Assembly (NCBI GenBank): GCA_038236215.1
Contig: JBBSTD010000014.1
Coordinates: forward strand, 5,937 to 69,936
Reading direction: 5' to 3'
Source of the DNA: Cytophagales bacterium
GTDB taxonomy: Bacteria; Bacteroidota; Bacteroidia; Cytophagales; Spirosomataceae
Length of the DNA stretch: 64,000 bases
Of the stretch, positions 6,461-59,086 are shown one piece after another. The stretch's first letter is position 1. Each line of letters starts with the position of its first letter. A model generated the notes under the pieces. The model did no database searches. It was not told the origin of the DNA and was given only the letters and a program-made list of their open reading frames with translations. Position numbers and translations under genes: made by a program.

Positions 6461-6503
6461 GGTTTACCTCCGGTGCGGTTGGCTGACGCACCGGAGGTAA
6501 ACC
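6461..6503. repeat. Perfect 17-bp hairpin after rhaD
   Basis: GGTTTACCTCCGGTGCG (6461-6477), 9-nt loop, CGCACCGGAGGTAAACC (6487-6503). No U-tract, so a stabilising or REP-like hairpin rather than a clear terminator. Confidence 0.8.
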
Positions 6504-53548: not shown

Positions 53549-53938
53549 ATGAAAGATAAAACTGCCAGAAAAATAGCCAGAATCGTTTTGGGGGGCACCC
53601 TGATTTTTGCCGGTATAAGCCACATGACCTTTGCCCGAAAAGCGTTCAAAGCCCAGGTTCCGGACTGGATTCCGTTGCCAATTGATGACACGGTCGTGTA
53701 TTCGGGTATCGCCGAAATAGCGTTGGGCAGTGCGCTGGTACTAACTAACAAGAAACAGCAGAAAACAGTGGGGAAAATAGCCGCCACGTTCTTTACGGCC
53801 ATATTTCCGGGTAATATCTCCCAGTACGTCAACAAACGCAGTGCGTTTGGACTGGACACCGATGGCAAGCGTCTGGGACGTTTGTTTTTCCAGCCTCTGC
53901 TCGTTTACTGGGCGTTGAAAAGTACTAAAAATCTGTAG
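53549..53938 (+). CDS. DoxX-like membrane protein
   Basis: AGISHM, SGIAEIALG, IFPGNI, RLFFQP. Confidence 0.75.
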   Translation: MKDKTARKIARIVLGGTLIFAGISHMTFARKAFKAQVPDWIPLPIDDTVVYSGIAEIALGSALVLTNKKQQKTVGKIAATFFTAIFPGNISQYVNKRSAFGLDTDGKRLGRLFFQPLLVYWALKSTKNL

Positions 53939-54001
53939 AGAACAATGGCTCAGAAGCTAAAAATGAGCCTGATAGTCCTGGAGCATTAATAGCCGGTTTG
54001 C

Positions 54002-54061
54002 TTTGACTGAGGCTAACACAGCGTTATATTTGTGAAGATATAACGCTGTGTTAGCCTCAGT
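54002..54061 (+). promoter_or_regulatory. mod operon promoter inside a perfect 24-bp inverted repeat containing a ModE-type box
   Basis: Arms at 54006-54029 and 54038-54061; core CGTTATAT-N8-ATATAACG; -33 TTTG at 54002-54005; -7 TATATTTG at 54025-54032 (19-nt spacer). Confidence 0.75.
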
Positions 54062-54074
54062 TAGGTAACCATGT

Positions 54075-54590
54075 ATGAACAACCGGAGCGTAACCATCGG
54101 GTTTGACCGCTGGATTTACATTAGTCTGATCACTCTTCTTTGCGCCGTCCCGATCAGAGGGCGGGCGCAAACCGCACTGACTATCTCCGGCGAAGTAACG
54201 AAGCCGATGACACTACAGGCAGTTGAGGTGAAAAACATGCCTCATATCGAGGTGACGGCCAAAGACCACGATGGCAAAGACCACCAGTACTCGGGTATTC
54301 CACTTGTTGAGTTACTTAAACAGGCAGGAACCACGCTGGGGGGCGAACTGAGAGGGAAAAACCTGCGAAAGTTTGTGCTGGTTAAAGGAGCAGACGACTA
54401 TGAGGTGCTGTTCGCACTTCCCGAACTCGATCCTGAATTTACTACCCAGACTATTATCCTGGCCGATGCGGTAGATGGCGCACCGCTGGTGCCGGGCGTT
54501 GGGCCGTACCGGGTGGTCGTACCGGTCGAGAAAAGACCCACTCGCTGGGTTCGGAACGTAAAATCAATCGAGGTGCGATTGGCTCCCTGA
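54075..54590 (+). CDS. Secreted molybdopterin-oxidoreductase-fold protein lacking the Mo-ligating Cys
   Basis: LTISGEV, YSGIPLVELL, GPYRVVVP, RWVRNVKSIEV; the only Cys is in the signal region. Confidence 0.65.
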   Translation: MNNRSVTIGFDRWIYISLITLLCAVPIRGRAQTALTISGEVTKPMTLQAVEVKNMPHIEVTAKDHDGKDHQYSGIPLVELLKQAGTTLGGELRGKNLRKFVLVKGADDYEVLFALPELDPEFTTQTIILADAVDGAPLVPGVGPYRVVVPVEKRPTRWVRNVKSIEVRLAP

Positions 54591-54621
54591 GTTGACCGGC
54601 ATAAAACGAATGCCATCACGC

Positions 54622-55371
54622 ATGAAAAAGCTACTCATTCTACTCATTATCCTGCCCCTAACGCTGTTAGGTCAGCCGAAACCCCTACGGGTAGCGGTGG
54701 CTGCCAATGCCCAGTTTGTGATGGATCAACTGAAGGTAGCTTTCCAGAAAAAGACGGGTACGTCGATGGAATTGATTGTTAGTTCATCCGGTAAACTGAC
54801 CACCCAGATTCAACAGGGCGCTCCGTACGACGTTTTTCTGTCGGCCGATATGACCTATCCTCAAACGCTGTACAATGCAGGATTGACAACAGCCGCACCG
54901 ATGGTGTATGCTTACGGCTCGCTGGTACTCTGGACACTGGGTAGCCTGCCTCTTACTGCCGATTTAAAGGTATTGTCGGACCCTACCGTTCGGCATATCG
55001 CCATTGCTAATCCGGCTACGGCTCCCTACGGCGAAGCGGCCGTTTCGTTCCTGAAATACCGGAAACAACTGGACCCGGTAAAACCTAAAATCGTGTATGG
55101 CGAAAGTGTCGCGCAGGTGAATCAATACGTGTTAACGGGGGCCGCCGAGGTAGGGTTTACGGCCAAATCGGTGGTGCTCGACCCTAGTCTCAAGCAACGT
55201 GGGCGCTGGATTGACCTCCCCGCCACGGGGTATTCGCCCATTGCGCAGGGTGTCGTTATCCTGAAGCGAACGAGTCAGCTACCGGCGGCCCGGCAGTTTG
55301 TGCAGTTTTTGCGTAGTCCGGATGCCCGTCGTATTTTGCAACAGTTCGGCTACCGTTCGCCCACTTCCTGA
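54622..55371 (+). CDS. modA: Molybdate ABC transporter substrate-binding protein
   Basis: VAVAAN, SSGKLTTQIQQGAPYDVFLSAD, IANPATAPYG, YGESVAQ. Confidence 0.93.
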   Translation: MKKLLILLIILPLTLLGQPKPLRVAVAANAQFVMDQLKVAFQKKTGTSMELIVSSSGKLTTQIQQGAPYDVFLSADMTYPQTLYNAGLTTAAPMVYAYGSLVLWTLGSLPLTADLKVLSDPTVRHIAIANPATAPYGEAAVSFLKYRKQLDPVKPKIVYGESVAQVNQYVLTGAAEVGFTAKSVVLDPSLKQRGRWIDLPATGYSPIAQGVVILKRTSQLPAARQFVQFLRSPDARRILQQFGYRSPTS

Positions 55372-55389: not shown

Positions 55390-56055
55390 ATGCCCATCGA
55401 CTGGGACCCTATCTGGCTAACGTTACGACTGGCTGGCATCACCACCGTATTACTGCTGTTGATTAGTGTTCCGCTGGCGGGGTGGCTGGCCCTGAGTCGG
55501 TTCCGGCTTAAACCGGTGGTGGAAGCTTTCATTAGCCTTCCGCTGGTATTGCCGCCCTCGGTAGTGGGGTTTTACCTGCTTCTCGCATTCAGTCCTACCA
55601 GTGCGTTTGGTGCGTGGTTGCTGCAAACGGTCAATCTGCAACTGGTCTTTTCGTTCGAGGGACTGGTGGTAGCATCACTGATATACAGTTTGCCGTTTAT
55701 GGTGCATCCCGTTCAGGCGGGGCTGGAAAACTTGCCCGCTTCCTGGCGTGAAGCTTCGTACACACTGGGGCAGTCGCCCGTCAGGACGCTGGTTCGGGTG
55801 TTGTTGCCCAACTGTAAACCGGCCCTGCTAACGGGTATCGTGCTGACGTTTGCCCACACCATTGGCGAGTTTGGGCTGGTGCTGATGATAGGCGGGAACC
55901 TGCCCGACCAGACCCGAGTGGCGTCTATCGCGATTTATGACGAGGTCGAACTCTTGCACTTTGATACAGCCCACGCCTATGCTGCCTTGTTGCTGGCGAT
56001 TTCTTTCGCTATCCTGCTGCTGGTGTATGGCATCAATAAACGTGTAACGGTATGA
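55390..56055 (+). CDS. modB: Molybdate ABC transporter permease
   Basis: LPLVLPPSVVGFYLL, FAHTIGEFG, GGNLP. Confidence 0.93.
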   Translation: MPIDWDPIWLTLRLAGITTVLLLLISVPLAGWLALSRFRLKPVVEAFISLPLVLPPSVVGFYLLLAFSPTSAFGAWLLQTVNLQLVFSFEGLVVASLIYSLPFMVHPVQAGLENLPASWREASYTLGQSPVRTLVRVLLPNCKPALLTGIVLTFAHTIGEFGLVLMIGGNLPDQTRVASIAIYDEVELLHFDTAHAYAALLLAISFAILLLVYGINKRVTV

Positions 56056-56900
56056 TTCAGATTGGTGTCGTTTTGCCCCGTTTGTTTGCCGAAGGAGCCA
56101 CCGAACTTCAGGTACAGGTTGCGCTGGAATCTGGTAGTTTAACGGCACTGGTCGGCCCCTCTGGTTCCGGAAAAACAACCTTGCTGCGGTTGTTGGCTGG
56201 ATTGGAAACGCCCCGCACTGGCCGAATTACGGTCGATGAGGCCGTGTGGTTTGATAAAAAAGAGGGAATCAACTGGTTGCCTCAGCAACGCTCCATCGGC
56301 TACGTGTTTCAGGATACGGCCCTCTTTCCGAACATGACCGTACGGGAAAATGTCACCTACGCAGCTCCGAAGGATCAGTTTGACTTTGTAAATGAGTTGA
56401 TAGAAGGTACTGGTCTGGAGCCGTTTGTCGATCAGAAACCTGGCCGCCTGTCGGGGGGGCAGCGGCAGCGGGTGGCACTGGCCCGCGCGCTGGTGCGACG
56501 ACCAAAGCTTCTGTTGCTGGATGAACCCTTTGCCGCGCTGGATGCTCAATCCAGTCAGCAATTACAGCAGGTGCTGGTGAAACTCCATCAGCGGTGGCAA
56601 ACGACCACGTTGTTAGTTAGTCACCATGATGCGGATGTTCAGGCACTGGCCGACCGGGTTATTCGCCTGGTGGAAGGCCACATTCAATCGGATGAACTAA
56701 TCGTAAACCGTCCGATTGACCCATTGATGCAGGAGCGCATTACGCAGATTGAATACGATGAAAACCGACAACACTGGGTCATCGAAACAACCAATTCACG
56801 GCTGCAATCCGTCATCCCTGCCTGGGGTCAACTCAAGGTAGGTGATATATTACAGCTAGCGGGGATAACGCAGGAGATGAGTGTGGATAGAGGTGTTTAA
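56052..56900 (+). CDS. modC: Molybdate ABC transporter ATP-binding protein
   Basis: GPSGSGKT, VFQDTALFPNM, LSGGQRQR, LLLDEPF. Confidence 0.88.
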   Translation: MIQIGVVLPRLFAEGATELQVQVALESGSLTALVGPSGSGKTTLLRLLAGLETPRTGRITVDEAVWFDKKEGINWLPQQRSIGYVFQDTALFPNMTVRENVTYAAPKDQFDFVNELIEGTGLEPFVDQKPGRLSGGQRQRVALARALVRRPKLLLLDEPFAALDAQSSQQLQQVLVKLHQRWQTTTLLVSHHDADVQALADRVIRLVEGHIQSDELIVNRPIDPLMQERITQIEYDENRQHWVIETTNSRLQSVIPAWGQLKVGDILQLAGITQEMSVDRGV

Positions 56901-59033: not shown

Positions 59034-59086
59034 CTTCAAATGTTTATACATTGACTTTACTCAAGTCAATGTATAAACATTTGAAG
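59034..59086. repeat. Perfect 24-bp inverted repeat in an AT-rich intergenic region
   Basis: CTTCAAATGTTTATACATTGACTT-TACTC-AAGTCAATGTATAAACATTTGAAG. Confidence 0.9.

Follow-up and report, generated by a model that had tools for sequence, protein, structure and literature searches.

Organization of the mod locus

The window, by which we mean the whole stretch of 64,000 nucleotides that was analysed, comes from a Spirosoma genome whose nearest named relatives are S. spitsbergense and S. luteum, and it contains a four-gene mod operon preceded by a long palindrome. The palindrome sits in the 136-nt gap between the operon and the gene for a 129-aa membrane protein, starting 67 nt after the stop codon of that gene and ending 14 nt before the start of the operon. 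The positions of the genes and of the elements in the gap are collected in Table 1. The modC-like ATPase falls below the TIGR02142 cut-off because its match covers only profile positions 10-214 of 353, and its last 67 amino acids match no Pfam family. Most Spirosoma have the 171-aa gene at the head of the mod operon, as do Larkinella, Mucilaginibacter and Pedobacter, and some species have a 375-aa gene interposed between it and modA.

Table 1. Features of the mod locus, with positions counted from the first nucleotide of the window.
Feature	Position	Strand	Basis
Gene for 129-aa membrane protein, weak DoxX/MauE likeness	53549..53938	+	ORF; weak Pfam matches, E about 0.005
Predicted -33 element TTTG (part of TTGACT)	54002-54005	+	Sequence and promoter scan
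Left arm of palindrome	54006-54029	+	16 outer bp (54006-54021) and left operator half-site CGTTATAT (54022-54029)
ModE-type operator core CGTTATAT-ttgtgaag-ATATAACG	54022-54045	.	Match to E. coli modA operator; genus-wide conservation
Predicted -7 box TATATTTG (Bacteroidota TAnnTTTG type)	54025-54032	+	Left half-site and first 3 nt of spacer
Right arm of palindrome	54038-54061	+	Right half-site ATATAACG (54038-54045) and 16 outer bp; predicted start of mod mRNA leader
171-aa secreted protein, molybdopterin-oxidoreductase-type domain (operon gene 1)	54075..54590	+	Pfam PF00174, E = 1.4e-10
modA, molybdate-binding protein	54592..55371	+	TIGR01256, 188.6 bits (cut-off 62.5)
modB, permease	55390..56055	+	TIGR02141, 230.3 bits (cut-off 182.6)
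modC-like ATPase, 282 aa, without TOBE tail	56052..56900	+	TIGR02142, 204 bits (cut-off 285)

An inverted-repeat search found two arms of 24 nt each that are 100% complementary and flank an 8-nt centre, ttgtgaag, reproducing exactly the perfect arms given in a preliminary description of this DNA. Read directly, the region is gcTTTG-ACTGAGGCTAACACAG-CGTTATAT-ttgtgaag-ATATAACG-CTGTGTTAGCCTCAGT-taggtaaccATG. On folding, a single strand of this DNA forms a hairpin of -27.6 kcal/mol (z = -11.5). A perfect inverted repeat with 24-nt arms is not expected by chance in 6.46 Mb, and 2.96 Mb of shuffled sequence contained no 20-pair repeat with three or fewer mismatches. The arm has no second copy in the 6.46-Mb genome, even when four mismatches are allowed, and this rules out a REP or MITE-type repeat family or a mobile element. 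An assembly artefact is excluded because the same architecture is found in independent assemblies of relatives. An Rfam scan of the gap returned only sub-threshold matches to microRNA hairpin models, which are noise, and no Moco riboswitch.

A predicted ModE-type operator within the mod promoter

The central 24 bp of the palindrome closely resemble the operator bound by ModE in E. coli. Fifteen of the 16 half-site bases are identical to those of the E. coli modA operator and the 8-nt spacing is the same, so that the core fits the Mo-box pattern of inverted half-sites, CGnTATAT ... ATATAnCG, with about 8 nt between them. For this comparison the operator was read directly from E. coli MG1655, where it is gtCGTTATATtgtcgcctACATAACGtt, laid out as CGTTATAT-tgtcgcct-ACATAACG and situated about 25 nt upstream of the modA start codon; the form given in the preliminary description was correct. 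In the genome studied here the core lies 29 nt from the first gene of the operon, and at 29.3 bits it is the top-scoring site of the genome in a scan with a half-site weight matrix.

Of 36 further Spirosoma genomes with modA that were examined, 35 have a core site upstream of the mod operon (16 of 16 in a first set and 19 of 20 in a second). One site of the first set is degenerate, and three stand farther upstream of the operon because the extra 375-aa gene has been inserted. Two homologues of the 171-aa gene from outside Spirosoma, on a metagenome contig (L086) and in a Chryseolinea MAG (L103), are preceded by a variant box, CGATATAT-N8-ATATATCG, and ModE-type boxes at the mod operon thus reach other Bacteroidota.

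The sigma-A promoter consensus of the Bacteroidota consists of a -33 TTTG and a -7 TAnnTTTG about 19 nt apart, with transcription starting a few nt downstream of the -7 element. Direct reading confirmed that both elements are present here at this distance, as had been described previously: exactly 19 nt separate TTTG from TATATTTG. A sigma-70-type scan called TTGACT-16-TATATT in the same place, at 54003-54030. The spacer of the operator starts with TT in every listed site and with TTG in all but two, so the left half-site and the spacer together always form a -7 box of the TAnnTTTG type. Operator and -7 element are therefore the same DNA, which makes promoter occlusion the natural mechanism. 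On these grounds we consider it highly probable that the central 24 bp are a ModE-type operator and that a ModE-like protein bound to it would block the mod promoter. In the mechanism we propose, a dimer of a 115-aa protein that has only the ModE N-terminal domain would bind 54022-54045 and occlude the -7 box, RNA polymerase would be blocked and the four-gene operon would be off.

A short ModE-like regulator and its second target

No modE gene lies in the window, as noted previously, and the preliminary description proposed searching the rest of the genome for a ModE-like helix-turn-helix protein. Such a homologue is encoded on a different contig of this genome (G000:C30:15082-15426). It is 115 aa long and has the ModE N-terminal domain only, with a domain content of HTH_1 alone and a TIGR00637 (ModE_repress) score of 90.6 bits, just below the cut-off of 98.5. 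Its best solved relatives are 2ijl (E = 7e-18), a 135-aa Agrobacterium protein deposited as a molybdenum-binding transcriptional repressor, and the N-domain of E. coli ModE (E = 1.7e-13). The JGI name of its family is 'molybdate transport system regulatory protein', and the close members listed there have about 112-165 aa, most of them 114-118.

The TOBE/Mop domain (PF03459) has no match anywhere in the genome, whereas 11 of 14 control genomes have one. With no TOBE domain in the regulator, in ModC or in the genome, neither trans-inhibition of the pump nor molybdate sensing of the ModE type has its usual domain. We infer that the regulator may respond to molybdate even so; it is without the Mop domains that sense molybdate in E. 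coli ModE. Among 25 genomes of the genus that were searched for both genes, 17 have modA and 16 of these have the regulator, the single exception being a genome that is 71% complete; four Spirosoma genomes have the regulator and no modA. This pattern of co-occurrence is compatible with a functional link and not tight. In one genome (G024:C1:2596908-2597233; L050, L051) the modE-like gene is split by an in-frame TGA or a frameshift, and the sites before the receptor gene described below and before the mod operon are still in place.

We built the half-site weight matrix from orthologous sites and scanned all 6.46 Mb with it at a cut of at least 23 bits. Three sites only reached this score in the whole genome: the one at the mod promoter and two others, at C154:11052-11075 and C154:11079-11102. 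The preliminary description had also suggested a search for further copies of the core, and the only other strong sites are thus this tandem pair, 7-57 nt upstream of the gene for an 863-aa TonB-dependent receptor (G000:C154:8457-11045). Together the two sites (C154:11052-11102 = L002:4053-4103) make up a palindrome with 26-nt arms and two mismatches. One or two sites precede the receptor gene at 15 of 16 loci in the first set and at nine of nine in the second, 30-120 nt upstream of the gene. In nine other genomes, of which one belongs to another family of the order, the regulator gene is the immediate upstream neighbour of the receptor orthologue; a regulator gene that adjoins a site-bearing receptor connects the protein with the motif and, through the motif, with the mod operon. 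The earlier proposal of a ModE-type core overlapping the promoter is therefore supported by conservation in 35 of 36 genomes, by a regulator homologue elsewhere in the genome and by a linked second target. The same regulator would control one unit besides the mod operon, namely the receptor gene through its two tandem sites, and the receptor is a candidate for the outer-membrane step of molybdenum uptake.

The predicted system resembles ModE-molybdate control of modABC in E. coli in several respects. The half-sites are nearly identical to those of the E. coli operator (CGTTATAT-N8-ACATAACG) and equally spaced, the site lies at the promoter of a molybdate ABC transporter, and the regulator has the N-terminal winged-helix domain including the SYK-AW motif of the recognition helix. 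It differs in that the regulator is only 115 aa long and has no Mop (TOBE) domains, there being none in the genome, in that the promoter has the -33 and -7 elements typical of Bacteroidota, with the -7 box contributed by the operator, and in that the regulon found here consists of the mod operon and the TonB-dependent receptor only. The length and domain content are those of short proteins with the ModE N-domain only, such as the Agrobacterium protein of PDB entry 2ijl; unlike for those proteins, a site and two target units are here predicted by comparative genomics. A search of one literature library found nothing specific on ModE sites in Bacteroidota, on the function or DNA site of short ModE proteins, or on ModE-controlled TonB receptors. 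The widespread, uncharacterised short ModE proteins of Bacteroidota thereby gain a predicted DNA site and a predicted regulon of two units. The presence of a TonB-dependent receptor in this regulon points to an energised outer-membrane step in molybdenum uptake, and the regulon poses the question of how a system that has no Mop domain would sense molybdate.

The outer arms in related lineages

In most of the genus the symmetry around the core ends at 8-12 bp. Eight lineages have a palindrome with common boundaries, namely this genome, S. spitsbergense (G068), a MAG (G063) and the contigs L126-L130. The boundaries TTTG/AC...GT/CA are the same and the inner sequence is different in G068, G063, L126, L128, L129 and L130, and the TTTGAC at the left edge is kept in seven of the eight clade members. 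The left and right outer arms read ACTGAGGCTAACACAG and CTGTGTTAGCCTCAGT in this genome, ACCAACGCCAGTCATG and CACGGCCGGCGTTGGT in L128, and ACTGCTGGCGGCTTAG and CTAAGCCGCCAGCAGT in L130; L129 is symmetric over 30 nt with one mismatch.

When the eight sequences were aligned, 93% of cells were paired, against 26-42% in slid registers. Changes on both sides are seen in 11 of the 16 outer pairs (24 cells), a result reached by none of 500 shuffles; the 11 pairs and 24 cells are alignment counts and not counts of independent compensated events, as a tree of the 171-aa protein left the branching unsettled. Between lineages the outer arms show 1-12 differences in 16 positions, within a genome only 0-3, and they are complementary in seven of the eight lineages, the sole decayed one being L127. 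The palindrome persists across lineages that are only 70-85% identical in a neighbouring protein. Whether the outer arms co-vary in relatives had been raised as a check in the preliminary description, and in this eight-lineage clade they do.

Four lineages, S. luteum, G010, L131 and L132, have the bare core without the extension, and we therefore conclude that the extension arose once and has been symmetric since. Independent, shorter extensions are present at the mod operator of G046 and G044. A recent duplication private to this genome is ruled out, since the nearest relatives and metagenome contigs carry the same palindrome with other arm sequences.

The preliminary description had considered that the symmetry, which runs 16 bp past a normal operator, might mean that the regulator has an extended footprint or that a second sequence-specific protein binds there. 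The comparison argues strongly against this: with up to 12 of 16 differences between lineages the arms hold no conserved sequence-specific contact, they are missing in most of the genus and they resemble no half-site. Because their sequence is free to vary, the outer arms would not be a sequence-specific protein site, and we regard such a role as extremely improbable.

The decayed lineage deserves separate mention. The 24-bp core of L127 is in the opposite orientation to that of all other sequences, its outer arms are decayed and its -33 element is lost. Its reverse complement, CGTTATAT-TTGTGCAG-CTACAACG, equals the core of L126 except for one base. A fold-back assembly artefact is ruled out for this contig, since its two sides are not reverse complements of each other. 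Chloroplast DNA offers well-known examples of loop inversion at hairpins, and the asymmetric 8-bp centre might likewise flip between the arms by recombination or template switching and so form a miniature invertible promoter. A flip would turn TATAT-TTG into TATAT-CTT (the flipped centre being CTTCACAA) and switch the promoter off, and L127, which carries the whole core the other way round, could be a natural centre flip that breaks the -7 box. It is a single case with decayed arms, however, on a contig with only 8 nt of sequence upstream of the palindrome (L127:1-80; ERZ28573550 scaffold_227513) and so serves as a lead only, and every other sequence has the centre in the 'on' orientation; an invertible promoter is accordingly very improbable. 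In this lineage, the only one in which the arms have decayed, the core is damaged as well, as both selection on the arms and conversion between them would predict.

Upstream context and RNA structure

The gene upstream of the palindrome is not the same throughout the clade. The DoxX-like gene is present on the same strand in this genome, G068, L126 and L128, and in G063, L129 and L130 a divergent gene takes its place. Homology between the two contexts stops at GCTTTG, that is, at the -33 element. These contexts bear on the possibility that the palindrome acts as an RNA hairpin, either as a terminator or insulator against read-through from upstream into the mod operon or as a 5' stem-loop of the mod mRNA. 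The long perfect palindromes of this genome concentrate at gene 3' ends, this one lies 67 nt downstream of a co-directional gene, and the RNA of the whole gap folds with -67.6 kcal/mol, all of which would suit such a role. Yet no U-tract follows the stem on either strand (the stem is followed by TAGGTAACC), a terminator scan made no call, and in G063, L129 and L130 the arms are still near-perfect and co-vary next to a divergent upstream gene. Termination of the upstream gene is ruled out as the common function by these three clade members, and across about 35 genomes arm length did not track the orientation of the upstream gene.

A stem-loop in the mod mRNA meets other objections. Transcription is predicted to start between the arms, about 7 nt downstream of the -7 box, and only the right arm would then be part of the mod mRNA; there is no conserved promoter farther upstream, as the two contexts are no longer homologous beyond GCTTTG. 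Transversion swaps make up half of the double changes, and mismatches of the G-T kind are no commoner than A-C (6 and 5), which shows no strand bias towards G-U and argues against selection on one RNA strand. Judged from these comparisons, the symmetry of the arms is probably not kept by RNA structure, and we consider the hairpin explanation improbable.

Palindromes elsewhere in the genome

Long perfect palindromes are common in this genome, and the palindromic form alone is consequently not rare here; what is special about the mod palindrome is its centring on a conserved operator. At a minimum arm length of 14 nt and a maximum loop of 12 nt, 358 perfect palindromes were counted in the whole genome, where about 0.3 would be expected. 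Almost every one of these is of unique sequence, half are without A/T tracts, and 79 perfect palindromes in the genome have arms of at least 24 nt. Counted by mismatches from zero to four, palindromes number 109, 40, 35, 48 and 54, and perfect ones outnumber those with one or two mismatches almost 3:1. By position, 136 were found in 796 convergent gaps and 24 in 778 divergent gaps, statistics that rest on crude ORF calls.

We followed two other palindromes of the window in relatives as controls. The first, at 59034-59086, has perfect 24-nt arms and a loop of 5, is A/T-rich and stands in a long gap after a DUF2461 gene; S. spitsbergense, G063 and S. luteum have no such palindrome at the orthologous position. 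The second, at 6461-6503, is a perfect hairpin with 17-nt arms at a convergent gene end and is absent from the nearest relatives. At this latter place S. luteum has an unrelated hairpin with arms of about 19 nt and S. spitsbergense is without about 600 nt, so that different species have different hairpins at one gene end. In the alignment with S. spitsbergense, which covers about 20 kb of synteny, no palindrome other than that of mod is retained; 22 of its 24 pairs are kept, four of them compensated.

The second target of the regulator offers a further comparison. At the receptor promoter the tandem operators form palindromes with 26-28-nt arms and species-specific spacers in six scattered species and not in their neighbours. 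The palindromes at the receptor promoters suggest the same perfecting as at the mod promoter, and together with the genome-wide excess they point to a general mutational cause.

Causes of the arm symmetry

Template switching at quasipalindromes is an established mutational process in which imperfect inverted repeats are perfected by arm-to-arm copying, as described by the Ripley model and by E. coli reporters (PMC7202029). The mod palindrome has what such copying leaves behind, namely near-perfect arms in which the changes between lineages are mirrored. The process would also account for compensated changes made in a single step, for the extension of the arms into the flanks (L129) and for the excess of perfect palindromes across the genome. 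It differs from known cases, which are laboratory hotspots or isolated events, in that copying would have acted repeatedly over long evolution on one operator-centred palindrome. The co-variation of the arms would be equally expected from template-switch copying between them and from selection for complementarity.

The explanation that we favour for the locus as a whole, with somewhat better than even confidence, combines promoter occlusion at the operator with arms kept symmetric by hairpin-templated copying. The outer 16 bp of each arm would be a self-complementary extension that originated a single time, in the common ancestor of a small group of Spirosoma lineages. It would have been created by fold-back (template-switch) copying that nucleated on the dyad of the operator, and the same copying would preserve its symmetry, a change in one arm being either reverted or copied to the other. 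We rate the chance that the outer arms are products of such conversion with no function of their own as about even. One observation counts against purely mutational arms: the mod palindrome persists while the control palindromes turn over, and this could mean selection. A selected core could also explain the persistence of the palindrome under copying, because the nucleus of the hairpin can then never decay.

The main alternative, an idea already present in the preliminary description, is that the outer arms are selected as a DNA structure. The 56-bp palindrome would extrude a cruciform under negative supercoiling, or form hairpins when single-stranded; the -7 box and the operator would then leave the duplex, and mod transcription would become sensitive to supercoiling or extrusion would compete with repressor binding. 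Cruciform-regulated promoters are known as engineered constructs or as rare natural cases in E. coli plasmids. As in those, the palindrome here spans the -35/-10 region, so that extrusion would inactivate the promoter; unlike in those, the centre is an 8-nt non-complementary operator spacer, and the cruciform is an idea based on sequence. In favour of this alternative, complementarity is held by co-variation while the sequence drifts, the palindrome survives in seven of eight deep lineages while the control palindromes are private to this genome, and the centre is A/T-rich and the DNA hairpin stable (-27.6 kcal/mol). The palindrome is moreover maintained in both contexts, with the upstream gene in tandem or divergent, and what is kept therefore belongs to the promoter itself. 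Against it stand the roughly 30 other Spirosoma species that use the same operator and promoter without the arms, the unpaired 8-nt centre that makes extrusion costlier, the sporadic perfecting with a different geometry at the receptor promoter and the genome-wide excess of perfect palindromes. We judge selection for a cruciform or hairpin rather unlikely. Survival across lineages 70-85% identical in a neighbouring protein, occurrence in two upstream contexts and one contig with a flipped centre leave open the broader idea that arm symmetry is selected and that promoter and operator form a structural DNA switch, worked by a supercoil-driven cruciform or by a hairpin-mediated flip of the 8-bp centre. 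We regard this as possible if doubtful; if true, the switch would give the Mop-less ModE system a second, structure-based input.

Returning to occlusion combined with copying, the operator and promoter reading is well supported, and the special meaning proposed for the outer arms is only partly supported: they form an extension that co-evolves and preserves structure, any function of theirs being putative. It appears that a protein-binding palindrome served as the seed of a longer one, the arms of which evolve in concert. This symmetry is unusual and may be a by-product of DNA copying, not a control device. Should the arms be neutral, the locus would show that processes at the DNA level can produce co-variation in an alignment with no RNA structure involved, a caution for RNA discovery based on covariation. 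Should they be selected, the locus would be one of the rare cases in nature of promoter control by DNA secondary structure.

A minor observation concerns the left edge of the palindrome. The two subclades, with the DoxX-like or the divergent gene upstream, lose synteny about 10 nt or less from the left arm (at about 53995-54005 of the window), and the edge is a possible rearrangement breakpoint.
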